Notes under the pieces: generated by a model
What the model saw: only the letters and a program-made list of their open reading frames with translations
Databases searched by the model: none
What the model was told of the DNA's origin: nothing
Made by a program: the position numbers and the translations under genes
Part shown: positions 20,319 to 38,067 of the stretch, in pieces
How positions within the stretch are numbered: the stretch's first letter is position 1
How the letters are laid out: each line of letters starts with the position of its first letter
IMG/VR virus record: IMGVR_UViG_3300021962_000028
Location: 1-64,000 of that record
Reading direction: 5' to 3' (one strand)
DNA: 64,000 nucleotides
Source of the DNA: a virus

Positions 20319-20699
20319 TTAACAACAAGCAGTATCAGAAATAAAACTATCTTGGACCGTGATGAATAATTGTTCTCTAATAGGGACTATTAGGTCGCCT
20401 TGTTCGTTCTTCAACATAAACTGACCTTCGTAACGTCCAACTTTATTAGTATCTTTTTTAGTAAAAGTGTAATAAATATAATATTCTGTTGGGGTATTAG
20501 GGTCAATAAAAGTTTTTGAAACAAACCCCGCTCGTTTAGAAACTATTTTAGGGATACCCGTTTCAACATCAACCATACTAAATAGGATTGTTGAAGATTC
20601 TATCAAATCCATAAAGTTTTGATAATCACTTCTACCGTCTTTTACGACTTGCATTTTAAGTACAGGTAATGTTGCGTTTTTTTTGATATAAAATTCCAT
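20319..20699 (-). CDS. BppU-like Ig-fold virion protein
   Basis: FYIKKNATLP.L..YTFTKKDT..G.YEGQF; ATG at 20699. Confidence 0.55.
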   Translation of the reverse strand: MEFYIKKNATLPVLKMQVVKDGRSDYQNFMDLIESSTILFSMVDVETGIPKIVSKRAGFVSKTFIDPNTPTEYYIYYTFTKKDTNKVGRYEGQFMLKNEQGDLIVPIREQLFITVQDSFISDTACC

Positions 20700-20746
20700 C
20701 AAGGTTTTTTATTATAAATACCAAATTGTTCTAAATAATTACAGGG

Positions 20747-21550
20747 TTATAACATTATATCAAAATATTCTCTCCAATCCGACTTTATTAAATAAAATAA
20801 ATCTTTTTGTCTGGTATAACAAATATCAAATATTTTTTCATCGCTACCAATGTAACCGTTATTAATAGATTCGTCAATTGTCTCAACAACTAATTCCAAT
20901 AAAGGACTAATTAAGTGGGATGGAAGTAAAAAACAAGTTCCTTGTATATTCCTAATTTGAGATAAACTATGATACTCTTTATTGGAAACATTAAAGTCTT
21001 GATTGTGACTGAAGAATGTAATCTTATTATGGTCTAAATTTTTAATTTTTGACATATTAGGCCATTGTTTGTTTTGATATAAACTAATATCGTTTCTCAA
21101 ACCGCCAGCGTCGGCCCATATAACCATATCATTATTAAAATATCTTTTTTCCACGGTATCTTTAAGGAAAAATACTTTGTTGAACATAATGATATTATAC
21201 AAAGGTTGACACATTTCTGGTACATCAGGAAACCCAACTTTAGATTTAAATGAATCTGAACTCATTAAAGAAGATAATGATTCATAATACTTTTCATACA
21301 TAGGTAATTCATTTAACGGTTGTTCAACAAATACAGTCTTTTCAAGGTTAGGGTCAAATTCTTTACGGTATTTAGTCAAATCATCAATAAATTTAGATTC
21401 GGTATATACTACAATATTACAATCTAAAGATAACGTATTTCTCATCCACCACCCGTAGGTGTGATAAGACATTCTAAAATTATTCCAATTTTCTCTACCT
21501 ATGTCGTATAGAGCCATTACGATAACAGGGTTATTTATATCCATTCCCAA
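20747..21550 (-). CDS. HtrL/YibB (WlaTC)-like glycosyltransferase
   Basis: VMALYDIGR, YNIIMFNKVFFL, IWADAG, GSDEKI. Confidence 0.7.
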   Translation of the reverse strand: MGMDINNPVIVMALYDIGRENWNNFRMSYHTYGWWMRNTLSLDCNIVVYTESKFIDDLTKYRKEFDPNLEKTVFVEQPLNELPMYEKYYESLSSLMSSDSFKSKVGFPDVPEMCQPLYNIIMFNKVFFLKDTVEKRYFNNDMVIWADAGGLRNDISLYQNKQWPNMSKIKNLDHNKITFFSHNQDFNVSNKEYHSLSQIRNIQGTCFLLPSHLISPLLELVVETIDESINNGYIGSDEKIFDICYTRQKDLFYLIKSDWREYFDIML

Positions 21551-22290
21551 TTTATTTTAATATTTTTATGTTGGATGTCTACATTATTGACATCAAAATA
21601 GTTTGAAGTATTATCTGGTTTAATTAATGAACTTAATTTATAACCGTATTTGTTTAACACTGTTGGGACAAATCCTTCGTGATAAGCATAATACCCATTA
21701 TTGTGTATTTCTAATAATTTCGAAAGAGCTTTATTAGAAAATCTTGTAGTGGGAAAAAATGACCCAAACATCTCGTTAGTATTTTCAGGTAATAAATCAC
21801 CGTCACCAGGAAATCTATCAAACCAATTATTTTTTGAAAAAGTTCTATTGTCAATTGTTGGGACGTTTTCTTGAGAAATTACTCCATTTTTTTTAAAACA
21901 AAAGTATGATAAGAAATCAGAATCATCACTATCAGTTTTAATAAAAAATTCATCCCAATTTTTCATTTTAATATCATCATCAAAAAACCAATAAAAGTCG
22001 TAATTTGGATTTTTAACATAAAAATATAACATTCTTAAATGAGCAAAAAACCAAACAATATTTCGATTACCATACGAATTCCAATAATGATGTTTACTAA
22101 CGTTAATATTAAAATTAAACTCATCTCGAATGTCTTGTTCTGTAAACTTAAACCCCACATCAAATGACGGGTCTTTTGTAATATCAGATAACCAAACCAT
22201 TTCTTTTTTATCTTTTGGGAAGTTTTCCCAGTTATTAACATAACTTTGAAAAACATCAGGTGTTGTACAAATACAATGTATATTATTCAT
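21535..22290 (-). CDS. Putative GT-A-fold glycosyltransferase
   Basis: YDFYWFFDDD, RFSNKAL, EGFVPT; within the GT operon. Confidence 0.55.
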   Translation of the reverse strand: MNNIHCICTTPDVFQSYVNNWENFPKDKKEMVWLSDITKDPSFDVGFKFTEQDIRDEFNFNINVSKHHYWNSYGNRNIVWFFAHLRMLYFYVKNPNYDFYWFFDDDIKMKNWDEFFIKTDSDDSDFLSYFCFKKNGVISQENVPTIDNRTFSKNNWFDRFPGDGDLLPENTNEMFGSFFPTTRFSNKALSKLLEIHNNGYYAYHEGFVPTVLNKYGYKLSSLIKPDNTSNYFDVNNVDIQHKNIKINWEWI

Positions 22291-23098
22291 ATTTTTTAGT
22301 TAAAAGTTCATTCCATTTAGGTATTCTATTAAATTGGTGTACTATATCATATGGGTTACCACTTTTTGTACATATTTTATCAGTAATTAATTGAGGTATT
22401 CCGTACCTGTTTTCAATGTTACCCTTAAACCCAAAACTTTCAAAAAATTGCGTTGGTCCCGCAATTGCACAGTGAACTACCCATCCATCCGTTAGATTAA
22501 AAATCTTTAATTTTTCAATCTCTTTATTTTTAACCATAACGATTAACGCTGCTTGGTCTTGAATGTTTGTAAGATTTGTACTATTTTCGCATAATTCAAA
22601 CATTCTTTTATATAATTTTATTAACGGTAATCTTTTACCTCCAATAACTCCAGAACATATTACTTCTTGGTTTCTACAATCATTATAGTCATTAGGAAAT
22701 AGTTTGTTAATCCAATCCGAATTCCAAGGTTCTTCACTTACTAATACACCTTCACCACCAACAAACACATCATAGTTTAAATCCATTTTATCAAATGGAT
22801 TTGATTGAAAAACAACATCAAAAACATCGGTTATTAAAAATAATTCGATATCAGAATTCTCTAAAAATTCAAAAGTTCTTTCAAGACGTTTATGATTTAT
22901 TCTCCAAGTATCCTGAATATTAACAGGTATTGGTATAATACCCATATCCTCACACTTTTTTAACTCATCTTCGGTTGAGTTAGTACATAATAAAATAACG
23001 TCCCCATCGACAAATTTTTTAAAACTATCTGACCATACTTTAATTTTTGAGATATGTTGACTTATGTTGTTTGAAACACCTAATAATGCTTTTTTCAT
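22283..23098 (-). CDS. Putative nucleotide-sugar glycosyltransferase
   Basis: ITDVFDVVFQSNPF, CSGVIGG, DQAAL, VHQFNR. Confidence 0.65.
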   Translation of the reverse strand: MKKALLGVSNNISQHISKIKVWSDSFKKFVDGDVILLCTNSTEDELKKCEDMGIIPIPVNIQDTWRINHKRLERTFEFLENSDIELFLITDVFDVVFQSNPFDKMDLNYDVFVGGEGVLVSEEPWNSDWINKLFPNDYNDCRNQEVICSGVIGGKRLPLIKLYKRMFELCENSTNLTNIQDQAALIVMVKNKEIEKLKIFNLTDGWVVHCAIAGPTQFFESFGFKGNIENRYGIPQLITDKICTKSGNPYDIVHQFNRIPKWNELLTKKYE

Positions 23099-23099
23099 A

Positions 23100-23672
23100 T
23101 TAACAATTATTGTTACTAATAATCAATTTATCGTTAAAATTAAGGATTGTTGGCCATAAATATTCCACGAGGTAATTGATATAATTTATTTTTTCGGTCT
23201 TAGGTAGAGTATCTCTAACTCTCTCATAAAACTCTATTGGATTTTTTAATATTAAATCTTTTGAAACTATTGATTGGGCTGAATTAATAAATTTAATTGG
23301 TTCACTATATGGTATTCCAGTATTTTTTGCATATTCAATTGTTTGTTTTAGAATGTCTTTATTATCTCTAATATAAGTCTTACCTAACGGTAAAAATTCC
23401 TTTTTAAAATCAAATCCATTAACCTTTTCAATAAATGAGTTACAATGATAAAATGGATTGTCTTGGGAAAAACAAACAAAATCAGGTAGATTATTATAAT
23501 TATCAATAATGTAGGTTAAATACACTATAGTATCAAATCCCACATTTGGTAAGTTATTCTCAAACTTATGATTGTTTTCGGGGTTTTTATTGTAAATCAC
23601 GTAATTGTGTTTTAACTCACTAACCCATTCTAAACTTTCTTTAAAATGACATATTACAACGATTAAATTCAT
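23100..23672 (-). CDS. DUF3431-like protein
   Basis: VVICHFKESLEW, LPNVG, YLTYIIDNYNNLPD..FSQDNPFYH. Confidence 0.7.
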   Translation of the reverse strand: MNLIVVICHFKESLEWVSELKHNYVIYNKNPENNHKFENNLPNVGFDTIVYLTYIIDNYNNLPDFVCFSQDNPFYHCNSFIEKVNGFDFKKEFLPLGKTYIRDNKDILKQTIEYAKNTGIPYSEPIKFINSAQSIVSKDLILKNPIEFYERVRDTLPKTEKINYINYLVEYLWPTILNFNDKLIISNNNC

Positions 23673-24919
23673 AATTTACCTTCTAGTTTATCACACCATC
23701 CTTTAGATGTTGAATACGGCCAAACAACCCATTTTGATGGTTTTTCTGCGGTTTGAAACTCTCTCCAAATCTTACAATAACCGTCTCTATCAGATTTAAG
23801 TCTTGCAATCTCGTTTTTATCGGCATCTTTTCTGAATAATTCTTGACCACCCTCTCTTTCAAAAATTACCGCCCAAAATTCATAATCGTTTTCAGGTACT
23901 TGGTTAAATGACACATCTATACAGTGTTTAAAAATTGACGAGAAACTACTCATCCATTCTTCGTCATTTTTGTAAGGGTTAGGGTTTGGTGGGTATTTTT
24001 TATCTAAGGTATATTGTTGTACCGACCTTTTACTAAAAAGAAGACCAGAATACTTTTCATAATCTCTAAGTGTTCTTTCAGTTCCGAAACCAAAAATACC
24101 AAATTCCTCAGGGTCAAATACCTCACCATCCATACTAAATAATCGTCTATTTTTTGCGTGGGCTCTTGAATTTTTTTCACCCCAAGTTTTGTCATCATCC
24201 CATTGTTTGGTTCTTCCCTTACGAGTATATTCGTGCCATACAACAACTTTGTGTGGATGAAATAAATCATATCCGTGAGTATACGCTCTAGCAGCAATTG
24301 AAATTTCTTCACCGTGAAAATAAAATTCAGGGTCGTGTTGGACTTCTTTAGAAAACTGTCCTAATGTAAAGGCGAAGTGTGCAGAATAAAACCTTGAAGT
24401 TATCGGTTCTGTTAAGTTTTGCCATCCTGGTATTGTTTCAGGTAAAAAGAATACCGCACCTTCAGGAATGAACCTATCGAACGCCATTCTCCACGGAACT
24501 GTGACTCGACCCTTAGGGTCATTCTCAGGGTCAAATGAAGAAACGTAACCTGTTAATAATGGTTTCTTATAACCTTTTTTTTGTAAACCTTTAATCATAT
24601 CTATCAAAGTCTTATCCCAATTCTTCTCGAATCTCATATGGGAATCGATTTGCATTGTATAGTCTTCTTCCTGATATAATTGTTGTGTTAAGTGTCTTGC
24701 CCAACAAACTCCTTTAGATTCTTCATATGGTATGTTTAAAATTCTAAATCTATCATCGTTCTCATATTCAGATAAATCGTCAAATTTATCTTCAGGATGA
24801 AATTGTCTTGCAATTGAAAAAACTAAATTTTTTGGGTTCTTAGCTTTATCGATAGCGTCTTTGATTGTTGGTATTAACTGAGGGTCTCGATAAGAGGCGA
24901 TTTGAATAAAAATTTTCAT
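23669..24919 (-). CDS. GT60-family (Skp1 Gnt1-like) polypeptide GlcNAc-transferase
   Basis: IFIQIASYRDPQL, SKGVCWARH, QIDSHMRFEKNWD, FHGEEISIAARAYTHGYD. Confidence 0.85.
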   Translation of the reverse strand: MKIFIQIASYRDPQLIPTIKDAIDKAKNPKNLVFSIARQFHPEDKFDDLSEYENDDRFRILNIPYEESKGVCWARHLTQQLYQEEDYTMQIDSHMRFEKNWDKTLIDMIKGLQKKGYKKPLLTGYVSSFDPENDPKGRVTVPWRMAFDRFIPEGAVFFLPETIPGWQNLTEPITSRFYSAHFAFTLGQFSKEVQHDPEFYFHGEEISIAARAYTHGYDLFHPHKVVVWHEYTRKGRTKQWDDDKTWGEKNSRAHAKNRRLFSMDGEVFDPEEFGIFGFGTERTLRDYEKYSGLLFSKRSVQQYTLDKKYPPNPNPYKNDEEWMSSFSSIFKHCIDVSFNQVPENDYEFWAVIFEREGGQELFRKDADKNEIARLKSDRDGYCKIWREFQTAEKPSKWVVWPYSTSKGWCDKLEGKL

Positions 24920-24965
24920 ATTAGTATTTTAGATACTAAAATATAGGAAATAAAGGAGTAATATA

Positions 24966-24998
24966 AATAAAAAATCCCTCAAGATATACTGAGGGATT
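24966..24998 (-). terminator. Terminator after the fibre operon
   Basis: AATCCCTCA..TGAGGGATT stem with a T tail on the minus strand. Confidence 0.75.
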
Positions 24999-25019
24999 GA
25001 TTTGAATTTGTTTAAAAAA

Positions 25020-26534
25020 TTAATAAATCTTATTTAATACAAATATATCCGAGTATATTGCGTTTGACGCACTGTTACTACTAAATTCAACGGTCGCATT
25101 TAAAGTGTTTGATACTGTAGTATCAAAAGTTGTATTATTAACAGTATTGAAGGCGAATCCTTCTGGTGCCCCATTAGATTGTTTTGTAGTATGAAATACC
25201 CCAAGAGAAACGATAGATGCAATCCCTGCAGAACCTGTTGCTCTTATAGTGAAATTAACTGAGAATTGCCACACGTCATTTGTTGCTGCATTCATAGTTT
25301 GAGGTCCACTATCAGCCAAAACAACCGAGCCAGATTTGACCCTTATTCGTATGGTGTCCGCATTTTTTGAAGATAATAAACCGCCAAAATCAGCTCTAAA
25401 ACTATCACCAATTTGAAATTGATTTGGACCTACAGTTAATGTCCCAACACCCCCATCAATCAATGTTGATTCTACGGTAGTCGCACTTACTACAATACTA
25501 TTACCTGTTTGTGAGAATAATCCATAAACTGTTGGGAAGGGAGCCGCGGGAGCTGATGTTCCTGATGTTCCATTAACCCCTGAACTACCACTAGTACCTG
25601 ATGTTCCTGATTCACCTGAACTACCACTAGTACCTGATGTTCCTGATTCTCCTGAACTACCACTAGTACCTGAAGACCCATTACTTGTTCCTGAAGAACC
25701 TGATGTTCCTGAAGAACCTGATGTTCCACCTAAATAATATAAGGTTGTTGTTACGAATGAATAATGACTAATCCCTTCAGTAACAAATGTTAAAGAATGA
25801 GTCTGATTAAATTGATTATTATTCTTACCTATTACTTTTACAACTATCCTATCTGTAATATCTAAAGTACTACCTGACTGATATATATCACTAACATACA
25901 TCGCAACATTAGGTGAATTTGTAGTAACAGGTACGGGGTCAGAACTAAATAAAAACGTTTCGGTCCCGCCACTATCTCTTTTATAAACTTTACAATATAT
26001 TTCAAAAACCGAATTTTGATTTTGTTTATACGCGTGTAAATTAAATGTCCAAACACCTGGTGGTAATACACTAATACCAGGATAGTCTACAGGTGTTTGA
26101 TATTCAGCAATAACACCTTCTGTTTGTGCGGAAACACTTACGGTTATTCCTGTTTCTGAAAAATTATCAGCAACTGGTGAAATTTCAAAATAAGGTGATT
26201 GGGTGTTTTGAGTATTAAAAAATAAAACCTGTCCGCTAGACACCCCATTAACTCCCGATGAACCATCAGTTCCTGAAGAACCACTAGTTCCATCAACACC
26301 TGAAGTACCACTTGAACCGTCAATACCAGACGTACCCGATTCTCCCGAACTACCTGATGTCCCACTTAAACCACTTGTTCCTGATGTCCCATTATCACCA
26401 TTTCTTGTTACCGCAGAAAAAGGTATTGATTCAGTCTGTCCTGAACTTACTGTATTGTAGTTTACGATAACCATTAAGGAGTCTGAGTATCCTGTGGTTG
26501 CTCTTGGTAATAACGATATTGGAGAATCTGACAT
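25020..26534 (-). CDS. Fibre-like virion protein with collagen-like G-T/S-S repeats
   Basis: Two blocks of GTSGSSG(E)SGTS triplets (approx. 26250-26400 and 25555-25730) between globular domains. Confidence 0.75.
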   Translation of the reverse strand: MSDSPISLLPRATTGYSDSLMVIVNYNTVSSGQTESIPFSAVTRNGDNGTSGTSGLSGTSGSSGESGTSGIDGSSGTSGVDGTSGSSGTDGSSGVNGVSSGQVLFFNTQNTQSPYFEISPVADNFSETGITVSVSAQTEGVIAEYQTPVDYPGISVLPPGVWTFNLHAYKQNQNSVFEIYCKVYKRDSGGTETFLFSSDPVPVTTNSPNVAMYVSDIYQSGSTLDITDRIVVKVIGKNNNQFNQTHSLTFVTEGISHYSFVTTTLYYLGGTSGSSGTSGSSGTSNGSSGTSGSSGESGTSGTSGSSGESGTSGTSGSSGVNGTSGTSAPAAPFPTVYGLFSQTGNSIVVSATTVESTLIDGGVGTLTVGPNQFQIGDSFRADFGGLLSSKNADTIRIRVKSGSVVLADSGPQTMNAATNDVWQFSVNFTIRATGSAGIASIVSLGVFHTTKQSNGAPEGFAFNTVNNTTFDTTVSNTLNATVEFSSNSASNAIYSDIFVLNKIY

Positions 26535-26542
26535 ATTTTAAA

Positions 26543-26788
26543 TTATTTAACTGTTATTATGTATTCTAAACCTGATTTATTTGGTGTTAAATCAGTGTCT
26601 TCAATTTTATTGTTTCCAAAGTAAAATTCTTCTGAGATTATTTCAAATGGTAAATTTAATTCTGTTTTAATTAAATTCTTAACATCTAATATTGTTAATC
26701 CTTCAGAAATGGTTATTCTATTTTCTTGTCTGAATAAAATCTTTTTTTCAGATTTCATTACTTTTACATCTATGTTTACACTTCTCAT
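26543..26788 (-). CDS. Small protein, probable ubiquitin-like beta-grasp fold
   Basis: TILDVKNLIKTELNLP..FYFGNNKIED resembles ubiquitin TIENVKAKIQDKEGIP..LIFAGKQLED; no C-terminal GG. Confidence 0.5.
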   Translation of the reverse strand: MRSVNIDVKVMKSEKKILFRQENRITISEGLTILDVKNLIKTELNLPFEIISEEFYFGNNKIEDTDLTPNKSGLEYIITVK

Positions 26789-26810
26789 ATTTTTGTTTTT
26801 TTAATTTTTA

Positions 26811-28859
26811 TTAATCCCACCAAACGATGTCATTTATAGAATCATAATTATCTAAATCGGTTATTTGTTCTATTAATACTGAATCCTCATTTATCATAAT
26901 CACAGTTCTAATTGGTGAATTTTGGAAAGTCACTATGTATCTATCTTTAAGAGCTTCAACATAAATCCAACTAGTAAATTCAGTATCATAACTATTTAGT
27001 AGATTTCCATTAAAATCATAAAGATTAATAATAATTAATGAAGTCTCAACTTGTTGATAAACGAATAATAATTTATCTTTACCAATCTCAATTCTATAAT
27101 CTTGATTTTCAGGTAGTAAAAATTCAGTACCTATAGAATCTGCCATTAAGAATCTACCATATCTCGTGTTAGGGTCGTATAAAAATAATTGGTTTGGGTC
27201 TAAAAAGGTATTTGAGAAATACCAATTAGGGTAATAAATGTTAGGGTATGAATTAATTGTTGTAAACTCAGTTGTCGTATTATTAATATAAAATGAATCT
27301 TGGTTTACTTTTAAATACAAGGTACCTCTTGTTGTATAATAATCTACACTAGGACTACCTGAATAAAATAAGTTATCAAGTAAAACACCTGACGAGTTAT
27401 AATACCCAAAATAAACATCTCCCGTAGTAGTGAAAATTGAACTATAAAAATTATTCTCAACCGAATCGTAATTCCAATAATTAACGTCAGTTATTAATAA
27501 ATTTGTATTTGTTAATGTAATTCCATTTGTGGAATTAAGTGATATCAAATTTAGATAACCTGATTCGTCAGTTCCAACAGTATACCAACCATCATCAGTT
27601 ATATACCCCCAAGGACTAATGGATTTACTGGTGTTTGCATAATTATATGTAGTAAATCCACTATCTCCGCTCAACATATAAACAATATCACAGTTTGAAG
27701 TTACTGTACCAATATTATTCCAACCATTGTATTGATAAAAAATCATAACAATATTATCAGAAATATTATCGTCAGGCCAAAATATACTGTTACTATTTAC
27801 TGAAAAATTATCAAAAAATTCTCTGTTATGATAATCAATAGTCATTGTATTAGTGTTACCATCAAAATGATAAATTTTATAATCAACGGTAGTATTATTA
27901 CCATCCCAAAAAATTAAAACTATTTTATTATTACCATAAAAATAATAATTCATATTGTTATAAGACGCTCCGTCTAAAACATAAGAATCTCCAATTATAC
28001 CACCATTTTCATCTCTGATATCAAATTCTTGGTAATATTGATTAACTTCATCGTATATAACCCCCACCATAAATGTTGTTTCCGCTTGTAATTTAAAATT
28101 AACGGTATATCCACTTTCGGCAAGAGCGTAAAACTCAGTTAAAGTACCATCTTGTTTACCTAAATAATAAGTTGTTTCATTATTATCTAGTGTATGTTTT
28201 CCAATTACTATAGATTTTTCTTTATTTGTTGCATCCCAATCCCATTCAATATCAACATAGTATAGACTAGGGTCCCACTCAAGTGTTAATACTACAGTTC
28301 CGTTAGAAACTTTTAAAACACCATTACTAATATCTTCATAAGACAACCATCTACCCTCAAGAGTGTCCATATCACGATTACTTGTAGTTGCACTATAGGT
28401 ACCAATTACCTGATTAGATGAGTCTGTAAAGATTACATACTTTTCTTGATAATCACCTCTACCCTCAAATTCATACATAAATCCTAACTCTGTTGATGGG
28501 TATATGTTATTTATAGCCCAATATGTTGCATCAATACCGAAATCAATTATTTCTGCAGTGAAATCAGTTGCGTTCATTGTAACAACACCATAATTATTAG
28601 AATCAATTATTTGAGATACTAATACAAATAATTCTTTTTCTGTTATTGGTTCTTCAATAAATAAAGTATATGTGTAATCATATTCAATCACATTTAAGTT
28701 ATAATAACCATATGGATGTGATGTAATGTTATTAAAAGGAATTGTTTTTTCCCCAAGATTTTGAGTGTCACCTGAAGTTGTACCAGTGACTGGCGTAAAT
28801 GTGACAGTTGCGGTTTTACCACTTAAATTATCACTTAATATTCTTGCTCCTATTGCCAT
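26811..28859 (-). CDS. Hypothetical beta-rich virion protein
   Basis: 682 aa, Tyr/Asn/Asp/Thr-rich; fibre operon; TATTTAT upstream. Confidence 0.7.
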   Translation of the reverse strand: MAIGARILSDNLSGKTATVTFTPVTGTTSGDTQNLGEKTIPFNNITSHPYGYYNLNVIEYDYTYTLFIEEPITEKELFVLVSQIIDSNNYGVVTMNATDFTAEIIDFGIDATYWAINNIYPSTELGFMYEFEGRGDYQEKYVIFTDSSNQVIGTYSATTSNRDMDTLEGRWLSYEDISNGVLKVSNGTVVLTLEWDPSLYYVDIEWDWDATNKEKSIVIGKHTLDNNETTYYLGKQDGTLTEFYALAESGYTVNFKLQAETTFMVGVIYDEVNQYYQEFDIRDENGGIIGDSYVLDGASYNNMNYYFYGNNKIVLIFWDGNNTTVDYKIYHFDGNTNTMTIDYHNREFFDNFSVNSNSIFWPDDNISDNIVMIFYQYNGWNNIGTVTSNCDIVYMLSGDSGFTTYNYANTSKSISPWGYITDDGWYTVGTDESGYLNLISLNSTNGITLTNTNLLITDVNYWNYDSVENNFYSSIFTTTGDVYFGYYNSSGVLLDNLFYSGSPSVDYYTTRGTLYLKVNQDSFYINNTTTEFTTINSYPNIYYPNWYFSNTFLDPNQLFLYDPNTRYGRFLMADSIGTEFLLPENQDYRIEIGKDKLLFVYQQVETSLIIINLYDFNGNLLNSYDTEFTSWIYVEALKDRYIVTFQNSPIRTVIMINEDSVLIEQITDLDNYDSINDIVWWD

Positions 28860-28900
28860 AATTTTTTTATTTTATAAATATCTTTTATTTTTTGTTTATT

Positions 28901-31900
28901 TTATACGAAAGTCAATTTCCAAGACACAATATTGTGATAATCTTGAGCCCCACCTGTGGCGGCACCAAAACCTATGTAATAAGGTGTCGAGTCAAACGCA
29001 AATCCATTGTATTGTTTATTTGGCGTACCAGGTTTAGTGTTCGTGGTATTAAAGTATAAATTAAGTGTTTGGGTTGAATGAGTATAATCCGCCCAAAAAT
29101 ATAATACTTGTCTAAAGTACCCTGAACTAACAGAATCTGTTGATTGTAAAACATTATTCTTAAACCATCTGAAATTATTAACTGTATACGTATAAAACCC
29201 TATCGCATTTATTGTACTAGACTCCGTAATTAAACCAATTCCTCCACCTCCAGAACCGTTAGTATTGTTGGTTGTTGTCCATTGGATACAATATCCGTCA
29301 GCACCTGTTCCTCCTCCTATATATGATTTCCACTCAAGTGAAAAATCTCTATCATATCTAACCGAGGTTGACCTATAAAGGTTACCTGTCGACGCAACTG
29401 TTGGTGATGTTAAATAAATTTCGTTTGATGTTTGTTCAACATAAGGACCAACTAATTCAAGTCCTGAAATTGATGAAAAATCAGTGTAATCAAAACCGTC
29501 TAAATTAGGTGTCGGTGTCGGTGTCGGTGTAGGTGTTGATGTTGGGGTTGATGTTGGGGTTGGTGTTGAAGTTGGTAATGGTACGTCAATATTATAATAA
29601 CTAATACAAACAGGTTCACTTAGATTAAAATTACCAATTGAAGGTATGATTAATGTTAATTGAGGTTGAGGTTCGGGTCCACTATTACCATTATTAAAAA
29701 ACATACCAAATTCATAACTAATAGAACCACTATAACCACTGTAAACCACGTATCTATTTCCTTGAGCGAATGTTAAAACGAAAGGGTTTTGTAAATTTTC
29801 AAAATATGGATAAGAATTATTACCATTTCTATCTATTTCATTCCAATAAACCCCACCTAAAGTAAATGTGTTAGGGTCTAATGTTGCAACTCCACCATCA
29901 ATAAAATTAGGGAAAATAATGTTTCCATTACTTGGCGGCTGATAAGGAAGTACCACTAAGTTAAATGTTTTACCAGTACAAGATAATATTTCATAACTTA
30001 AATCGTTATTAGGTATTATTTTACTAATAATATCATTTATAGGTATTAAGTTATATGTGATATCATTACTTGGGATAACTTTAAAATTAAAGTCTCCGTT
30101 TGGAATTAACGCGTAATTGATATCGTTATTAGGTATTATTGTATAATTGAAGTCACCATCTGGTATTGTAATGTAATTTAAATCATTATCAGGGATAATC
30201 AAATAATTAAAATCGTTAACAGGTATTGGTGTGTTACATTCAATTATTAATCTACCACCATTTTCTTGTAATATATAGAAACCATTTTCTTGTAATAGAA
30301 AACAATTTTGGACTTGAGTCGGTGTAGGCGTTACGGTTGGCGTTTGTGTTATCGTAGGGGTTGGTGTAGGCGTTACGGTTGGTGTTTGTGTAGGCGTTAC
30401 GGTTGGTGTTTGTGTTATTGTAGGGGTTGGTGTAGGCGTTACGGTTGGTGTTGGTGTGTGATAGAAAGTTGTTGTTGTAGTCGTAATGGGTATTATAGTT
30501 GTTGTAGTTGTAGTAATAGGGTTTATTGTTGTAGTTGTCGTAGTAATAGGGTTTATTGTTGTAGTTGTCGTAGTAATAGGGATTATTACCGCACAATTAG
30601 GACAATCAAAATCAAATAACTCAAATTTATCTTTTAATAATAAAAAGTTATGTTTAACCTCATCGGCGGATAACGGCTCTGTGTACATTCTAAATTGAGA
30701 TATACCTCCGTCAAATGACCCCGCAAAATTTTGTTCTAATAATATGTTAGTCGTTAGACCTGATAAAGAGGTTCCACTCAATATATTGTTTGGTAAACAT
30801 TCAGGGTCTTGCTGGTAAACTAATCCACTTAATGATTCAGGACATCCTGTGAAAGTTAAGTTGTTATGTAACCCTTGAGTTCCTCCACCCCAGGATACGT
30901 TATACGGTACCCCAACCTGTCTTTCTTTTTCAGTGTCTAACGCCCTTGGTATTATTTCTTCAATATCCTCAAATGTGTGAAAGATTCTTCCGTTAACGTA
31001 AACTTTAATTCTACCTTTTCTGTACTCCTTTTCAATTAACCATCTTTCATTTAGTCTAACAACTTCAATTCTCTTGTCAATGTCAGGACCAACATCGGAT
31101 TTTGGTTCAATTAACCTTACAGATTCATTTACCAATGAGAATAGATAAGGGTCTTCACTAATTAACCCTAAACCTCCTTTATACCATAAATCACAAGTGT
31201 CAAACCAAGTATATCTTTCCCACACTAAATCTAATTGCACCCAATGTTCCTGTTGTAAAAACGCAGGGTTTACCTCTTGACAAAAGTCATATATACCTTT
31301 AGGAGTACATAAATTATCCACAGTATACCCTGTTTGATATGTTACTCCTGTTGTTGAACAAGTTCCTGTGGTGACACAGTCGCCTGTAAACCTTAAAATC
31401 CTAACACCTATCTGAGGGTTATGTGGGTCTCCACAAAGTTTAAAGGCGATTGCGTTTGATAAATCATCTAACTTTGGGTCTTTATCAGGATTAATTATCT
31501 CAGGGGTTTCAAGACAACCACATTCACAATCTATATTATGTGATACCGACTCTTGAGTTGGTTGATAAACTTGAATACAGTTTGAGTTGGTTATTGCCGT
31601 ACTTGAACAAGCACAGGTCTTTAGACAAGTTAAACTTTCAGTGACCCTTGTGTACCCACTATCGGAAATAGGATTTCCGTCCGCTCTATGATAAAATTTA
31701 TTTTCCGCTCTGGTTCCCAAATAAAAGAAAATATCTTTGTTATTAGGGTAGAAATTATTTAGTGTTGTTTGGTATGCTGGTGGATTAAACTCATCTATAA
31801 ATCTTGGTTTTAATAAAACCTCAACCGACCAACCTTTATTAACTCTTTCAGGGTATAATGTATAATCATATCCGAATAACTTGTAGAACCCCTGATAGAA

Positions 31901-32467
31901 CCCACCATATAATTCGTGATATACACCAATCTTTGGTGAAATTTTAGACACAACATTATATGATATATCTTTTTGTAACCCTGAAAAACGAATGTTTGGA
32001 CTTGCGGTATAACCAGTAACTTGATGTAATTTTAACCTTCGGTCGAAAGATAATCTATCAAATTTTTGACTGTCAGACAATAAACCCTCAGTTGCGGTGA
32101 TTGTCACCCCTGTCATTTGTTCAACTAAACCATTATCAATACCCGTTAACCCTATATCACAAATTGTTTGTGAACTATAACAAGTTAAGTCATTATTGTT
32201 TGGATTATAATAATTTGACGATATTAGATTATTGAATGGGTTATAGGCATTATAGTTTAACACAAATAATTCACTATTACTTGGGTTATCTAAATCAAAA
32301 CTAAATGGTAACCTATTACCGTCATCTTCAGCAATAAGTTTTGGGGAGAAAACTACCTCCTCCTTATAGTCTCTTTCATCCGAAGATAAGGAAAAATCTT
32401 GTATCTCGGACTTATTAAGAAGATACCACTTCTTAAAATTATACTGGTTTATATTTTGATAGGCCAT
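28901..32467 (-). CDS. Large virion protein: ConA/LamG-like region, mucin-like Thr/Pro tracts, C-terminal L-type lectin domain
   Basis: FDGGISQFRMYTEPLS (LamG-like end); GADGYC..YIGFGAATGG..HNIVSW (legume lectin-like); TTTTTT and TPTPT tracts. Confidence 0.8.
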   Translation of the reverse strand: MAYQNINQYNFKKWYLLNKSEIQDFSLSSDERDYKEEVVFSPKLIAEDDGNRLPFSFDLDNPSNSELFVLNYNAYNPFNNLISSNYYNPNNNDLTCYSSQTICDIGLTGIDNGLVEQMTGVTITATEGLLSDSQKFDRLSFDRRLKLHQVTGYTASPNIRFSGLQKDISYNVVSKISPKIGVYHELYGGFYQGFYKLFGYDYTLYPERVNKGWSVEVLLKPRFIDEFNPPAYQTTLNNFYPNNKDIFFYLGTRAENKFYHRADGNPISDSGYTRVTESLTCLKTCACSSTAITNSNCIQVYQPTQESVSHNIDCECGCLETPEIINPDKDPKLDDLSNAIAFKLCGDPHNPQIGVRILRFTGDCVTTGTCSTTGVTYQTGYTVDNLCTPKGIYDFCQEVNPAFLQQEHWVQLDLVWERYTWFDTCDLWYKGGLGLISEDPYLFSLVNESVRLIEPKSDVGPDIDKRIEVVRLNERWLIEKEYRKGRIKVYVNGRIFHTFEDIEEIIPRALDTEKERQVGVPYNVSWGGGTQGLHNNLTFTGCPESLSGLVYQQDPECLPNNILSGTSLSGLTTNILLEQNFAGSFDGGISQFRMYTEPLSADEVKHNFLLLKDKFELFDFDCPNCAVIIPITTTTTTINPITTTTTTINPITTTTTTIIPITTTTTTFYHTPTPTVTPTPTPTITQTPTVTPTQTPTVTPTPTPTITQTPTVTPTPTQVQNCFLLQENGFYILQENGGRLIIECNTPIPVNDFNYLIIPDNDLNYITIPDGDFNYTIIPNNDINYALIPNGDFNFKVIPSNDITYNLIPINDIISKIIPNNDLSYEILSCTGKTFNLVVLPYQPPSNGNIIFPNFIDGGVATLDPNTFTLGGVYWNEIDRNGNNSYPYFENLQNPFVLTFAQGNRYVVYSGYSGSISYEFGMFFNNGNSGPEPQPQLTLIIPSIGNFNLSEPVCISYYNIDVPLPTSTPTPTSTPTSTPTPTPTPTPNLDGFDYTDFSSISGLELVGPYVEQTSNEIYLTSPTVASTGNLYRSTSVRYDRDFSLEWKSYIGGGTGADGYCIQWTTTNNTNGSGGGGIGLITESSTINAIGFYTYTVNNFRWFKNNVLQSTDSVSSGYFRQVLYFWADYTHSTQTLNLYFNTTNTKPGTPNKQYNGFAFDSTPYYIGFGAATGGAQDYHNIVSWKLTFV
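29985..30220 (-). repeat. About seven tandem 33-bp (11-aa) coding repeats
   Basis: NDFNYLIIPD / NDLNYITIPD / GDFNYTIIPN / NDINYALIPN ... Confidence 0.85.
30312..30590 (-). repeat. Mucin-like coding repeats (PITTTTTTIN x4, then TPTVTPTQ-type)
   Basis: 30-bp units such as GGGTTTATTGTTGTAGTTGTCGTAGTAATA and recurring GTAGGCGTTACGGTTGG. Confidence 0.9.
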
Positions 32468-35112: not shown

Positions 35113-36327
35113 ATGACAAAAATTAATGTATTAGTACTACCATCAGATAAAACAGGTGTAGGTAAGTTCAGGTCTGTCGACCCACACATCTTTTTACAAA
35201 AATTATATCCCGAAGATTTTCACGTAGATATTGACTATCAACCTAAAGTTGATGATTTGAATTATTGGAAAAAATATCAAATAGTTCACATCCATAGAAC
35301 CATAGCTCAAAACTATGATAATACCCCTACGATACTTAAAACGTTAAACGATTTAGGAATTGTAACTATTATTGACATTGACGACTATTGGATGCCAGGT
35401 CCTGAACACCCAATCTACGATTTAATTAAAAATCATAAAATTCACGAAAAAATTGTTGCCAACCTAAAAGCTGCAAGATACGTTACAACAACAACAACTT
35501 TATTTGCTAATGAGATTAGAAAAATAAATAAGAATGTTATTGTATTACCAAACGCAATAGACCCGAAAGAACCTCAATTTAATGAACCAACTTTAGAGTC
35601 AGACAAATTAAGATTTGGATGGTTAGGTGGTTCTTCTCACCTACACGATTTAAAATTAATCGAAGGGTCTCTATCCAAATTTAATTCTGAAGACCGAAAA
35701 GATTTACAAATTTATTTATGTGGTTTTGATACTAGAGGTACTATTACTGAAATTAATAGAGATACAGGTGAACAAAAACAAAGACCTATCAAACCTGAGG
35801 AAACTGTTTGGAATAAATATGAACAAATTATGACTTCAAACCGTACAGGTTTAAGTGAAGACTACATTAACTACCTTTTAAGATTTAAAGAAGATGTTTA
35901 TCCTAATGAACTTGAACAACCTTATGTTAGAGTTTGGACAAGACCTGTACAATCTTATGCTAAGAATTATTCAAAATTTGATGTATCTTTGGCACCTATT
36001 AAAAATACAATGTTTAATAGAATGAAATCTCAACTAAAGGTTATTGAAGCGGGATTTTATAAGAAAGCATTAATTGCGTCTGAAATAGGTCCTTATACCT
36101 TAGATTTGAAACACGCGTTAAAAAATGGTGAGTTCTCAGATGGTAATGCTTTGTTAGTTAATGAAAATAGAAACCATAGTGATTGGTATAAGTTCATTAA
36201 AAAACTTAAACAAAATAGAAATTTAGTTACAGACTTAGGAGAAAGATTATATGAGACTGTTAAAGACACTTATGATTTAAATAACGTAACTAAAACAAGA
36301 GCTGAATTTTATAAAAGTATAGTATAA
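35113..36327 (+). CDS. GT-B (GT4-like) glycosyltransferase
   Basis: IDIDDYW, VLPNAID, GWLGGSSH..DL, DVSLAPI..FNRMKSQLKVIEAG. Confidence 0.85.
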   Translation: MTKINVLVLPSDKTGVGKFRSVDPHIFLQKLYPEDFHVDIDYQPKVDDLNYWKKYQIVHIHRTIAQNYDNTPTILKTLNDLGIVTIIDIDDYWMPGPEHPIYDLIKNHKIHEKIVANLKAARYVTTTTTLFANEIRKINKNVIVLPNAIDPKEPQFNEPTLESDKLRFGWLGGSSHLHDLKLIEGSLSKFNSEDRKDLQIYLCGFDTRGTITEINRDTGEQKQRPIKPEETVWNKYEQIMTSNRTGLSEDYINYLLRFKEDVYPNELEQPYVRVWTRPVQSYAKNYSKFDVSLAPIKNTMFNRMKSQLKVIEAGFYKKALIASEIGPYTLDLKHALKNGEFSDGNALLVNENRNHSDWYKFIKKLKQNRNLVTDLGERLYETVKDTYDLNNVTKTRAEFYKSIV

Positions 36328-36328
36328 T

Positions 36329-36781
36329 ATGGACACTACAAAAGGAATTATTGGATTTACTGCGGGTAATTTTGATTTATTACATCCAGGTTACATTTAT
36401 ACGTTTGAGGAAGCAAAGAGACACTGTGATTATTTTATGGTATTTCTTCAAATTGACCCATCTGAAACACGATTTACCAAATATAAGCCAGTTGTACCCG
36501 TATATGAAAGATACAAGACATTAATGGCTATTAAATATATTGATGAGGTTGTAACCTACCAAACTGAAGATGAATTACTTAAATTAATGGAGTTTTTTAA
36601 ACCTGACGTTAGAATTTTAGGTGACGACTATATTGGTAAAAGATTCACGGGAGACCATTTACCAATTAAAGTTGTTTACACGACTAGGTCACATAATTGG
36701 TCTACAACTAAGATTAAAGATTTAATTACAATTCAAACAATCAAACAAAATCCTGATATTATTAACGAAATAAATAAATAA
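36329..36781 (+). CDS. TagD-like cytidylyltransferase
   Basis: GFTAGNFDLLHPGY, ER..L.AIKYIDEV, LGDDY, R..WSTT. Confidence 0.85.
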   Translation: MDTTKGIIGFTAGNFDLLHPGYIYTFEEAKRHCDYFMVFLQIDPSETRFTKYKPVVPVYERYKTLMAIKYIDEVVTYQTEDELLKLMEFFKPDVRILGDDYIGKRFTGDHLPIKVVYTTRSHNWSTTKIKDLITIQTIKQNPDIINEINK

Positions 36782-36784
36782 ACT

Positions 36785-37492
36785 ATGATTAAAATTCCAA
36801 TTACCAAAATATTGTTTCTTGACATTGAAACTGTTGGTGGATGTAAAGACTATGAGACCTGTAAGGTTAGTAATCCTAAAGTTGCCGAACAATTCATTAA
36901 ATATATTGATTGGTTCCATAAAAGATTTCCTGAAGATTCTCAGTTGTCCTTGGATGAGGTTTTTGCAAAACGAACCGCACTTGTTCCTGAATTTGCAAAG
37001 ATTATTTGTGTTAGTGTAGCCTTTGTATTGGATAATGGTGAAATTAAAAGACAAACATTTTCAGGTGATGATGAAAAAGAATTGTTGGAAGGGGTTCAAA
37101 AATTACTTAATAGATGTGGAAAGTTAGACTTCTTCCTATGTGGACATAACCTTAAAAACTTTGATATTCCTATGTTGGCAAAACGTATGATTATCAATGG
37201 GTTAATGCCATCATCGATTCTACCGTCCTATGACACTAAACCTTGGGAAATTAAGGCGATTGATACTAAAGAAATTTGGCAATATGGGGCATATACCGCA
37301 ATTGGTTCATTAGATTTAATGTGTGCTTGTATGGATATTCCATCCCCTAAAAATGGCGAAGTAACGGGAGATAAAGTCCACGATGCGTATTGGAATAAAA
37401 ATATGTTAAAAGAAATTTCAGAATACTGTGAACGAGATGTGGATGTATTAATTGACGCAATAAAAAAATTAAAAGAACTTAAAATAAATTAA
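36785..37492 (+). CDS. PolB-like 3'-5' exonuclease (DEDD)
   Basis: FLDIET, GHNLKNFDIP, YCERDV. Confidence 0.85.
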   Translation: MIKIPITKILFLDIETVGGCKDYETCKVSNPKVAEQFIKYIDWFHKRFPEDSQLSLDEVFAKRTALVPEFAKIICVSVAFVLDNGEIKRQTFSGDDEKELLEGVQKLLNRCGKLDFFLCGHNLKNFDIPMLAKRMIINGLMPSSILPSYDTKPWEIKAIDTKEIWQYGAYTAIGSLDLMCACMDIPSPKNGEVTGDKVHDAYWNKNMLKEISEYCERDVDVLIDAIKKLKELKIN

Positions 37493-37494
37493 AT

Positions 37495-38067
37495 ATGAAC
37501 ATAGACGAACTTGAAGACCTATTCACTGACGATGAATCGGAATTAAAAAAAATGTTATTAGATATGGGTGTGGATTTGGACGACCTTGAGAAGGAGTTTG
37601 CCAATTACCATCCAAGAAAACCTTTAAAATATGAGGTAATATCTGATGATGCGGTAGAACCGTCATATAATTACCCCTCAGATTCAGGGTTTGATTTATA
37701 CTCAACGGAAGAGGTTACGTTAGAACCTTTTGGAAGAGCCCTTATCCCAACGGGATTAAAATTTGATATTCCTGATGGGAGTGAAATTCAGGTTAGACCT
37801 AAAAGTGGTTTGGCTCTAAAACAAGGGTTAACTGTGTTAAATACACCAGGGACTGTAGATTCAGGTTATAATGGTGAGATACAGGTAATTGTATTCAATA
37901 CCAATCCAAAACCATTTACAGTTGATAAAGGTATGAAAATCGCTCAAGCGGTTCTTTGTCCTGTAGTTAACGGTAACTGGGTAGAATTAATTAAAGTAGA
38001 TTCTGTGGAAGAAAAGGATAGAGGTGATAATGGGTTTGGTTCAACAGGAATTAATTTTAAAAAATAA
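37495..38067 (+). CDS. dut: Trimeric dUTPase
   Basis: SGFDLY, RPKSGLA, GTVDSGYNGE, KIAQ, RGDNGFGSTG. Confidence 0.95.
   Translation: MNIDELEDLFTDDESELKKMLLDMGVDLDDLEKEFANYHPRKPLKYEVISDDAVEPSYNYPSDSGFDLYSTEEVTLEPFGRALIPTGLKFDIPDGSEIQVRPKSGLALKQGLTVLNTPGTVDSGYNGEIQVIVFNTNPKPFTVDKGMKIAQAVLCPVVNGNWVELIKVDSVEEKDRGDNGFGSTGINFKK

Follow-up and report, generated by a model that had tools for sequence, protein, structure and literature searches.

The window analysed here is a 64 000-nt stretch of the viral record IMGVR_UViG_3300021962_000028, and its sequence places it in an uncultured T4-like jumbo phage of ∼300 kb with Flavobacterium-type bacteria as predicted hosts. This phage has no close relatives in culture. 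Its own record is ∼53% complete, and two relatives (G001 and G002) are 97–99% complete; at least 539 viral contigs and thousands of metagenome proteins belong to the clade, i.e. these are abundant, uncultured jumbo phages. The locus is on the minus strand and directly adjoins a DNA polymerase gene. All genes named in the original prediction are found at their positions in the list of open reading frames, and the proposed layout (fibre-like genes, terminator, TATTTAT and five packed genes) is borne out. The five genes form an operon in which neighbours overlap or abut, with junctions of 4, 1, 8 and 16 nt calculated from the coordinates. The features, in the order of transcription and followed by two features elsewhere in the window, are:

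28901..32467, minus strand: 1188-aa fibre-like protein, proposed main acceptor (translation)
30314..30586, minus strand: poly-Thr (ITTTTTTINP, four times) and TPTVTPTQ-type tract, residues about 628–718 of the 1188-aa protein (DNA pattern at 30357–30439 and 30468–30574)
29498..29584, minus strand: second Thr-Pro linker, residues 962–990 of the 1188-aa protein, before the lectin-like domain (DNA pattern at 29508–29536)
26811..28859, minus strand: 682-aa fibre-module protein (open reading frame)
26543..26788, minus strand: 81-aa fibre-module protein (open reading frame; a single homologue, in related locus L009)
25020..26534, minus strand: collagen-like fibre protein of 504 aa, perhaps a second acceptor; has two triple-helix tracts of the G-T/S-S type (PF01391, E 2e-13)
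24973..24998, minus strand: intrinsic-terminator-like hairpin after the fibre gene, 10-bp stem then TTTTATTTAT
24963..24969, minus strand: promoter-like TATTTAT, 50 nt before the GT60 start (positional enrichment before genes)
23669..24919, minus strand: GT60-family glycosyltransferase, 416 aa, predicted soluble, conserved anchor of the locus (PF11397, E 7.8e-69)
23100..23672, minus strand: DUF3431 protein, 190 aa (PF11913, E 2.5e-17)
22283..23098, minus strand: retaining-type GT-A glycosyltransferase, GT6/GT8/GT77-like, candidate elongating enzyme (predicted fold, invariant D91 and D94)
21535..22290, minus strand: GT31-like GT-A glycosyltransferase with a DDD motif, candidate elongating enzyme (predicted fold, FFDDD)
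20747..21550, minus strand: HtrL_YibB-family protein, 267 aa (PF09612, E 3.8e-26)
20319..20702, minus strand: conserved 127-aa gene with its own TATTTAT, right border of the variable region (homologues in 74 loci)
9119..9247, minus strand: poly-Thr tracts in the tail sheath gene (6752–10102), residues 286–328, possible acceptor (translation, pattern)
35113..45155, plus strand: second sugar cluster, apparently conserved, outside the five-gene operon

The lead enzyme had been described as GT60-like, and a profile search agrees: the protein matches PF11397 ('GlcNAc') with 233 bits (cut-off 21) over two stretches, profile positions about 2–44 and 95–349, and matches phrog_24687 (glycosyltransferase) with an E-value of 3.9e-165. 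No solved structure related to it is detectable by sequence. Among 38 homologues (36–50% identity), the motif D92-S93-H94 keeps its D92 and H94 without exception and its S93 in at least 90%; E204/E205 (xED-type Glu pair) and H229 (C-terminal His) are invariant or nearly so. DxH substitutes for the DxD metal-binding motif specifically in GT27 and GT60 (PMC7185993), and by its sequence the phage protein has both the DxH and the C-terminal His of GT60 (shared with GT27). The GT60 enzymes characterised so far are polypeptide alpha-GlcNAc transferases that initiate mucin-type O-glycans in Dictyostelium and Trypanosoma cruzi; one of the family, a soluble enzyme of the cytosol, has Skp1 as its substrate (PMC8724618). 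We found no characterised bacterial or viral member in the literature. We propose the phage protein as a candidate initiating polypeptide HexNAc transferase.

The family assignments made earlier for the four downstream genes also hold. The DUF3431 gene is seen in three related loci only. Both putative GT-A genes have a predicted GT-A fold: for 22283–23098 (model pLDDT 95) the best Foldseek hits are GT6 alpha-1,3-GalT/ABO transferases and GT8 glycogenin (E about 1e-9), and for 21535–22290 (pLDDT 96) they are GT31 B3GNT2/B3GalT5 (E about 3e-5), with an invariant FFDDD motif in the latter gene product. Judging from these models, the operon would contain the elongating transferases of a mucin-type system, one GT6/8/77-like and the other GT31-like.

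The TATTTAT word does overlap the T tail of the terminator (hairpin 24998–24973 on the minus strand), as had been noted. Over the whole window its count does not exceed the chance expectation (46 versus 53.8), but its positions are strongly non-random: it is 10-fold denser within 80 nt before genes, with a maximum at −30 to −11. In 39 out of 81 related loci it is found at −50 to −41 before GT60, and it also precedes sheath, fibre and head genes.

The 1188-aa protein starts with 625 residues that are 46–99% identical across eight related loci, and its variable part begins exactly at the Thr tract, where these residues stop. Behind the poly-Thr/Thr-Pro linker come 11-residue repeats and then the second Thr-Pro linker, and the protein ends in a region with weak resemblance to legume lectins (Lectin_L-type, E 9.7e-06, below the cut-off). 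No membrane or signal segment is predicted in this protein. The 682-aa protein has no Pfam, PHROG or PDB match; its homologues in 18 related loci have only about the first 70–125 residues in common. The 504-aa protein matches many PHROG tail-fibre families and PDB collagen chains in addition to PF01391. Three features make the 1188-aa and 682-aa proteins probable components of the virion: they are modular, they lack export signals, and the protein encoded next to them has collagen-like tail-fibre matches. The peptides quoted in the original prediction are all present in the translations (TTTTTTINPI and TPTVTPTQ in the 1188-aa protein, GTSGSS in the 504-aa protein). The poly-Thr and Thr-Pro linkers are candidate acceptor tracts, as it proposed; the GTSGSS tract is a collagen triple-helix repeat and not mucin. 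The sheath tracts are distant from the operon and are found at the same position in the sheath of G001.

GT60 is present in all 83 related loci that we compared (74 complete loci; 26 complete upstream modules). The 0–9 genes that follow it encode transferases and sugar methyltransferases, which fall into at least 59 clusters, and an HtrL-domain protein (69 out of 83 loci) is usually last; the 267-aa protein of the window is a shortened version of the one that closes the cassette in most relatives. The relatives' cassettes encode GT34-, GT25-, GT2-, GT7-, GT10-, GT32- and PLOD-type transferases and sugar O-methyltransferases. The five-gene operon exists, but it is a rare variant, seen in three out of 74 complete loci; the cassette as a whole is hypervariable and has the conserved GT60 as its frame. 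On the other side of GT60 are large variable proteins in which S/T/P tracts account for 12.5% of the residues, versus 0.02% for the cassette and 1.7% for other flanking ORFs (83 loci), and 20 out of 26 complete upstream modules contain an S/T/P tract or a collagen-like repeat. Loci L017, L025/26 and L063–65 have GT60 and no long tract in the module immediately before it; in G001 the tracts are elsewhere.

Co-occurrence of GT60 with Thr tracts across related phages was the comparative test named in the original prediction, and it holds in both directions. TPTPTP-coding sites number five in G000, 28 in G001, 29 in XacN1, 26 in Xoo-sp13 and 19 in CM1, all GT60-positive (the reversed pattern, our control, has 0–1 sites in such phages), and zero in nine GT60-negative large phages (3.47 Mb in all). 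In the other direction, PF11397 is encoded by nine out of 42 viral contigs chosen solely by a (TP)5 tract, versus none out of 42 chosen by a random 14-mer. The GT60-positive phages fall into few lineages, so that the statistics for both comparisons overstate independence (Fisher p = 5e-4 for five positive versus nine negative large phages, relatedness ignored; p = 0.0024 for the contigs). Four of the nine positive contigs are from the window's own broad clade. Six of the nine have genes with S/T/P tracts only a few genes away from GT60, and the identity of the nine GT60 proteins to that of the window extends from 74% to as low as 28%.

The closest cultured homologue (47% identity) is ORF334 of phage XacN1. 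XacN1 virions contain at least two Schiff-stained glycoproteins, and the authors suggested that two glycosyltransferases encoded by the phage are responsible (PMC5852040, Suppl. Fig. S4); ORF334 is one of these two. ORF334 has baseplate genes nearby, as well as the gene for a 3313-aa protein that contains Thr-Pro tracts; unlike the GT60 gene of the window, it is followed by a carbamoyltransferase gene and unrelated genes. The XacN1 study did not class the enzyme as GT60 or name acceptors, and made no link to Thr-Pro tracts or cassette variability (PMC5852040).

The explanation that we favour, and consider somewhat more probable than all others taken together, is that the locus encodes a cytoplasmic mucin-type O-glycosylation system for the phage's own virion proteins, with glycans that vary among strains. 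GT60 membership, the Thr-Pro co-occurrence and the XacN1 glycoproteins lend partial support to self-glycosylation as first proposed, with the G-T/S-S tract now read as a collagen-like repeat. Late in infection, the soluble GT60 enzyme would add the first HexNAc, most likely GlcNAc from the host UDP-GlcNAc pool, to freshly synthesised fibre proteins, at Thr (and Ser) residues of their poly-Thr and Thr-Pro linkers; sugar may also be placed on the tail sheath and on the collagen-like fibre. The DUF3431 protein, the two GT-A enzymes and the HtrL protein (all predicted soluble) would then extend and decorate the chains. Late timing is suggested by TATTTAT, which precedes sheath, fibre and head genes and is also at a conserved distance before GT60. 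Direct transfer in the cytoplasm is suggested by the lack of membrane segments in the cassette and of lipid-carrier and flippase families. Thr rather than hydroxyproline is the likely site, since no phage-encoded prolyl hydroxylase (PF13640-type) was found. We infer the acceptor, sugar, timing and purpose of the coat, as well as the order in which the elongating enzymes act; adjacency and co-occurrence guide the choice of acceptors, and for the purpose the original prediction named shielding, adhesion and evasion of defences. GT60 is fixed and the extension genes are swapped like cassettes, and therefore different glycans are expected on the same kind of stalk among relatives. More tentatively, the clade may display mucin-like stalks; the hypervariable cassette that follows the fixed GT60 would then determine their glycans, giving 'glycan serotypes'.

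The proposed system resembles the protist GT60 pathway of Dictyostelium and T. cruzi in enzyme family, DxH signature and Thr-/Thr-Pro-rich tracts (PMC7185993, PMC8724618), and T. cruzi gp72 has a very similar PTVTPTP... domain (PMC3630849). As in the Skp1 pathway (Gnt1 of GT60, then GT2/GT74 and GT77), the phage enzymes are predicted to be soluble and would work in the cytoplasm, and a GT77-like (PF03407-related) enzyme comes after GT60 in the operon. Unlike the protist systems, that of the phage is viral, would operate in the bacterial cytoplasm without a Golgi or an evident prolyl hydroxylase, and has extension enzymes that are swapped among relatives as cassettes.

Virion O-glycosylation has reportedly been shown experimentally in mycobacteriophages (Freeman et al., 2023, Cell Host Microbe; cited in PMC12619734), with C-terminal tails, on capsid and tail-tube subunits, as acceptors. 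There too, phage glycosyltransferase genes are beside structural genes and the phage's own particle is the target (here a putative one); the differences are that the enzyme here is GT60, and that the putative acceptors, recognised from sequence, are Thr-rich linkers of fibres and sheath. We know of no GT60-initiated mucin-type tract described for giant viruses. These viruses do glycosylate themselves (chlorovirus capsid glycans; clade-specific fibril clusters of Megavirinae) (PMC9614988, PMC7019647). They share with the system proposed for our phages soluble eukaryote-like transferases and sugar methyltransferases, independence from host pathways and gene sets that vary by clade; unlike our phages they have eukaryotic hosts, and chlorovirus glycans are N-linked to the capsid protein. 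In serine-rich-repeat adhesins, GtfA/GtfB prime and variable transferases then extend. Clostridioides difficile SgtA (GT-A, GT2-like) adds GlcNAc to Thr of the collagen-like BclA3 repeats (PMC7157674). In both of these bacterial systems, as in the putative one here, the gene for a priming GlcNAc transferase adjoins one for a Thr/Ser-repeat or collagen-like fibre, and a variable number of further transferases serves for extension; the families, however, are different (GT2-like SgtA, GT-B GtfA), and the products are exported from the cell and not assembled into a virus. No GT-B priming pair of the GtfA/GtfB type was seen in the operon, and none of the accessory Sec genes of the adhesin loci was seen here; the adhesins are likened as functional analogues only.

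A second explanation, which we regard as unlikely, is that the cassette remodels a host polymer (lipooligosaccharide, capsule or the lipid-linked glycan of Bacteroidota general O-glycosylation), perhaps to block superinfection or to keep progeny off debris, and that the fibre genes merely share a recombination hot spot with it. HtrL_YibB, GT25, GT8 and GT2 are typical of lipooligosaccharide/O-antigen loci (PMC4172580), variable transferase clusters of cyanophages were read as modifying outer polysaccharides in a jumbo-phage survey (PMC7824862), and the cassette variability is reminiscent of O-antigen loci. However, the gene that is conserved as the anchor of the locus belongs to GT60, and the GT60 enzymes characterised so far use polypeptides as acceptors (PMC8724618). 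Membrane-like segments were found in none of 298 cassette proteins and in none of the transferases or fibres of the window. Lipid-carrier transferase and flippase families (PF02397, PF00953 and PF01943) are absent from G000, G001, G002, XacN1 and Xoo-sp13 (positive controls were detected), and no ORF of G001 has more than four membrane-like segments. Remodelling of a host polymer would also give no reason to expect glycoproteins in XacN1 virions (PMC5852040) or an association of GT60 with Thr-Pro tracts across whole genomes. By these searches, the phages do not encode the initiating lipid-carrier transferase, the flippase or the multi-membrane proteins of a Wzx/Wzy- or ABC-type polysaccharide locus, although they might use host machinery.

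Glycosylation of non-virion proteins, either host factors modified for takeover or proteins that the phage sends to the cell envelope, seems improbable. GT60 is a protein transferase family with a cytosolic member that acts on the regulatory Skp1 (PMC8724618), and the 1188-aa and 682-aa proteins are themselves putative virion components; but the tail sheath is among the tract-bearing proteins, the collagen-like neighbour matches tail-fibre families, the tract-bearing proteins have no export signal, and the XacN1 glycoproteins came from purified virions (PMC5852040). We give the same low weight to the tracts being plain flexible linkers, with the GT60 link due to shared ancestry or habitat and the cassette glycan free or otherwise attached. 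Thr-Pro spacers are indeed widespread, flexible and functional without sugar, and the restriction of GT60 to few lineages would fit; yet the association spans the whole 74–28% range of GT60 identity and hosts from Xanthomonadaceae to predicted Bacteroidota, and both GT60 and Thr-Pro tracts are absent from nine large phages, among them Flavobacterium phage 'immuto'.

Hypermodification of the phage DNA against restriction, like that by T4 glucosyltransferases or with diverse DNA glycans, is very improbable: the DNA polymerase gene is adjacent and the second cluster has a dUTPase/dCTP-deaminase-like gene, but Thr-Pro co-occurrence would be left unexplained, and the single thymidylate-synthase-family gene of the two 97–99% complete relatives keeps its uracil-specifying Asn (PFNIASY). 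Viral transferases that place diverse glycans on DNA have reportedly been found (Pyle et al., 2024; cited in PMC12619734). To our knowledge, however, GT60, GT31-like enzymes and sugar O-methyltransferases are not DNA transferase families, and phage DNA bases carry one to three sugars, fewer than up to nine cassette genes would suggest. T4-type DNA glucosylation is not supported, as dCMP hydroxymethylase, which would make the 5-hmC acceptor, is not evident in the two near-complete relatives (the window's record being 53% complete).

If virion self-glycosylation with such 'glycan serotypes' is correct, GT60-type mucin glycosylation, characterised only in protists so far, also works in bacterial viruses, and the phage sugar coat is under diversifying selection, possibly driven by escape from glycan- or protein-recognising defences, grazers and proteases, or by tuning of adhesion to host capsules and particles. 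Phage self-glycosylation as such has an experimental precedent in mycobacteriophages, and there are hints of it for XacN1; here another enzyme family, GT60, is tied comparatively to a recognisable acceptor type, the poly-Thr/Thr-Pro linkers found in fibres and in the sheath. The putative system occurs in an environmental clade that is very common and in cultured jumbo phages of Xanthomonas and Stenotrophomonas. Cassette variability would make the virion sugar coat fast-evolving, with consequences for host range, particle stability and stickiness in water. This reading also bears on the search strategy for phage proteomes, and it is directly testable because XacN1 is cultured and its virion proteomics data are public.

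Two further observations concern the surroundings of the cassette. The second sugar cluster encodes GT2, GT8 and GT1-like glycosyltransferases, a cytidylyltransferase and a methyltransferase, with dUTPase, exonuclease and PhoH genes interspersed among the sugar genes. The 127-aa border gene is enlarged to 405–410 aa, with Thr-Pro tracts, in loci L352 and L353.

The best-supported reading of this locus, and in our judgement a fairly probable one, is cytoplasmic, phage-encoded mucin-type O-glycosylation of the virion's Thr-rich linkers: GT60 would start the glycan on linkers of the phage's own particle, and the enzymes of a swappable cassette (the variable sugar-enzyme genes downstream of GT60) would write the remainder. 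Self-glycosylation of viruses is already known from mycobacteriophages and giant viruses; the system proposed here is a variant of it, and new as a variant. Its build is most like that of bacterial repeat-protein systems, e.g. SgtA/BclA3 (PMC7157674).

Features of the locus, in order of transcription (1188-aa gene first)
28901-32467, minus strand: fibre-like protein, 1188 aa (from its translation)
26811-28859, minus strand: 682 aa, without known family (Pfam and PHROG)
26543-26788, minus strand: 81 aa, without known family, an ORF inside the fibre module
25020-26534, minus strand: collagen-like fibre, 504 aa (PF01391, 2e-13; many tail-fibre families)
24998-24973, minus strand: hairpin terminator
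23669-24919, minus strand: GT60, 416 aa (PF11397, E 7.8e-69; phrog_24687, 3.9e-165)
23100-23672, minus strand: DUF3431, 190 aa (E 2.5e-17)
22283-23098, minus strand: GT-A fold, 271 aa (predicted structure)
21535-22290, minus strand: GT-A fold, 251 aa (predicted structure)
20747-21550, minus strand: HtrL_YibB, 267 aa (E 3.8e-26)
20319-20702, minus strand: conserved small gene, 127 aa
17513-20224, minus strand: DNA polymerase, 903 aa

The five enzyme genes abut or overlap. The operon, its gene assignments and the repeats of the original prediction were confirmed, including the lead enzyme as a GT60 (by its PF11397 match); the 1188-aa and 682-aa proteins, which it had counted as virion proteins, are putative virion proteins only. 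The two GT-A structures were predicted from alignments of metagenome homologues (pLDDT 95 and 96): the model of 22283-23098 resembles retaining GT6/GT8 enzymes (PF03407 is present in some homologues), and that of 21535-22290 resembles GT31 beta-1,3 transferases, with an invariant DDD. Sequence searches of the PDB with GT60, both GT-A genes and the 682-aa protein gave nothing real, and the sole match of the 1188-aa protein was a short pectate-lyase chain. No functional literature was found for DUF3431. Among the fetched loci, the 81-aa gene has a homologue only in one (L009).

ITTTTTTINP occurs four times in the 1188-aa protein and is followed by TPTVTPTQ-type repeats, a second TPTPT linker and a lectin-like end (a weak match). 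Residues 1-625 of this protein are conserved (up to 99% identity) and the variable part starts exactly at the poly-Thr tract, which makes the tract the linker that joins an anchoring part to distal modules that can be exchanged. The predicted G-T/S-S repeats are present as two tracts in the 504-aa protein, but they are collagen triple-helix repeats (PF01391, 2e-13). Candidate acceptor peptides are TTTTTTINPI, TPTVTPTQTPTV and GTSGSSGTS. Across loci, 12.5% of residues in proteins encoded before GT60 lie in S/T/P tracts, versus 0.02% in the cassette and 1.7% in other flanking ORFs, and some pre-GT60 proteins of related loci have more than 50 TPTxTxTPT units. Further poly-Thr tracts are found in the genome in a 519-aa protein and in the tail sheath (1116 aa; 6752-10102, minus strand), the latter with poly-Thr TTTTTTTVPVTTTTTT and TTTTTSPITTTTTT at residues 286-328 (nt 9119-9247). 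In a 97% complete relative (GT60 73% identical), 14 out of 325 ORFs carry tracts, including the sheath, where the position is the same as in the window. A PHROG scan of the other tract-bearing proteins gave no functional names.

The peptides that serve best as acceptors in T. cruzi are runs of Thr, and in Dictyostelium the PTVT repeats of PsA bear O-GlcNAc. The PTVTPTP... domain of T. cruzi gp72 closely resembles the phage tract (PMC3630849). GT60 enzymes transfer alpha-GlcNAc to polypeptides; in Dictyostelium and T. cruzi they initiate mucin-type O-glycans, and a soluble member acts on Skp1 in the cytoplasm (PMC8724618). DxH replacing DxD is common to GT60 and GT27 (PMC7185993); the phage GT60 has D-S-H, a Glu pair and, further on, a His, all of them retained by 37 homologues (36-50% identity). 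The PF13640 prolyl hydroxylase was not found in five GT60 phages, so hydroxyproline is rejected as the primary route and Thr is the likely acceptor site. Membrane-like segments were found in none of 298 cassette proteins, the window's transferases and the fibre proteins. A lipid-carrier route is not supported, as carrier transferases and Wzx flippases were not found in five GT60 phage genomes (controls were positive); a 368-aa protein with four membrane segments in a near-complete relative (G001) was considered as a WecA-like enzyme and ruled out on checking.

The only cultured phages with GT60 are the Xanthomonas jumbo phages XacN1 and Xoo-sp13 (47% identity) and the Stenotrophomonas phages CM1 and RAS14 (44%). 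In XacN1, the GT60 gene (ORF334) lies near baseplate wedge genes and a gene for a 3313-aa protein with Thr-Pro tracts. Purified XacN1 virions contain at least two Schiff-stained glycoproteins, which its authors suggested to be made by the phage's two transferases; the enzyme was not classed as GT60 there and the acceptors were not identified (PMC5852040). That the enzymes remodel a glycan of the host surface, rather than of the particle, we consider rather unlikely. A literature search for GT60 together with phage found nothing relevant. Most Thr-Pro-coding sites of XacN1 fall within ORF232-237 (124048-133104), six hypothetical genes that lie side by side.

The predicted co-occurrence of GT60 and Thr tracts was observed in both directions (5/5 versus 0/9 genomes; 9/42 versus 0/42 contigs). 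TPTPTP-coding sites were counted per genome with the reversed pattern as control: GT60-positive genomes have 5 (G000), 28 (G001), 29 (XacN1), 26 (Xoo-sp13) and 19 (CM1) sites (control 0-1), and nine large PF11397-negative phages, including a Flavobacterium phage, a Xanthomonas jumbo phage and XacN1's nearest polymerase relative, have none in 3.47 Mb. For the reverse test, 42 IMG/VR contigs of at least 20 kb (mostly fragments) were chosen only for a (TP)5-coding stretch; PF11397 is found in nine of them, versus none in a set of 42 picked with a random 14-mer. Fisher p values, which ignore relatedness, are 5e-4 (genome counts) and 0.0024 (contigs). GT60 in the nine positive contigs is 74, 70, 69, 60, 42, 39, 34, 28 and 28% identical to the window's, and in six of the nine the genes with tracts are only a few genes away from it, so the link extends beyond one clade. 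We regard it as quite improbable that the tracts are coincidental linkers while the cassette makes another glycan product, and equally so that proteins outside the virion are glycosylated. Glycosylation of phage DNA is very improbable: the single thymidylate-synthase-family gene of two near-complete relatives keeps the uracil-type Asn, which argues against a 5-hmC sugar acceptor, and this route is not supported. That gene (L088:1486-2604, plus strand) encodes 372 aa, roughly 100 more than is usual; it carries an insertion behind its first third, and its uracil-type motifs are canonical.

GT60 relatives are numerous in metagenomes, with 6,879 at E < 1e-10. More than 120 clusters show 73-89% identity, and the contigs reach 320 kb; 539 IMG/VR contigs carry GT60. 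Over the 83 loci compared the layout is constant. A conserved 285-aa gene, encoded on the other strand, comes first; then come one to nine large proteins that vary, GT60 (in every locus) and zero to nine variable genes, drawn from at least 59 sequence clusters. An HtrL-domain protein (553-799 aa) follows in 67 out of 74 complete cassettes, and after it a 126-aa gene (127 aa in the window) and the polymerase. The variable genes include transferases (GT34/DUF273-, GT25-, GT2-, GT7-, GT10-, GT32- and PLOD-type) and sugar methyltransferases (CmcI- and FkbM-type). Only three loci share the window's cassette type, and close relatives (L008, L009 and L013) have fibre genes nearly the same as the window's with different cassettes, so each of the two modules is exchanged on its own. 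In these comparisons of gene content, the turnover of cassettes suggests that the glycan is under diversifying selection.

We also observed that the cassette-closing protein (L064:12252-13931 and 66 other loci) is an HtrL domain plus about 300 residues without known family, and the window's closing gene is the HtrL part only (267 aa). One cassette cluster (L069:2724-3458, plus strand) matches the PLOD GT domain of collagen lysyl hydroxylases (6.3e-08), which is of note beside collagen-like fibres. The 127-aa border gene (20319-20702) may be a stub of another fibre-like protein, as it has homologues of 405-410 aa with long Thr-Pro tracts (L352:1584-2816, minus; L353:13574-14791, plus). At E <= 0.001 the PF11397-like family comprises 4,684 representative clusters, and giant metagenome proteins (P0246-P0260; up to 2461 aa) have up to four PF11397-like stretches.

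The total count of TATTTAT in the window is at chance level, but its position is non-random, so the view that it is merely a frequent word was rejected. In the whole record, 56 out of 195 ORFs have it in sense within 80 nt upstream (10x the genomic density), and 41 out of 59 upstream occurrences are 11-30 nt before the start codon. The genes concerned are mostly structural, and include the gene before the tail tube (2173-4236), the sheath, both large fibre genes and genes of the 58-63 kb block. Examples in the window are:
4251-4257, minus strand: TATTTAT
10136-10142, minus strand: TATTTAT
28874-28880, minus strand: TATTTAT
32477-32483, minus strand: TATTTAT
32497-32503, plus strand: TATTTAT
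For GT60 the element is at -50, and in 39 out of 81 related loci it sits between -50 and -41, though their spacers otherwise diverge. We take TATTTAT to be a promoter element of the phage, probably a late-class one (as inferred); GT60 would then be made together with the virion proteins.

The window covers the first 64 kb of an IMG/VR record of 158,622 bases whose completeness is estimated at 53%, which implies a genome of about 300 kb. GC is about 31%, and a contractile tail of T4-like type and a family B DNA polymerase are encoded. No close cultured relative was found (DNA polymerase at most 26%, sheath at most 33% identical); 20000-33000 had no megablast match among 50,697 phage records, and likewise both GT-A genes by tblastn. 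The 'Moraphages', with four core glycosyltransferase groups whose role was left undecided (PMC12619734), were tried as the same clade; their identity with the window's T4-like clade was not established. A second sugar cluster at 35113-45155 (plus strand) encodes GT2, GT8, a double GT2, a GT1-like gene, a cytidylyltransferase and a methyltransferase. Interspersed among them are a dUTPase-like gene, a PolB-type exonuclease and PhoH. Since the left part of this cluster is found again in relatives, it looks conserved rather than cassette-like.
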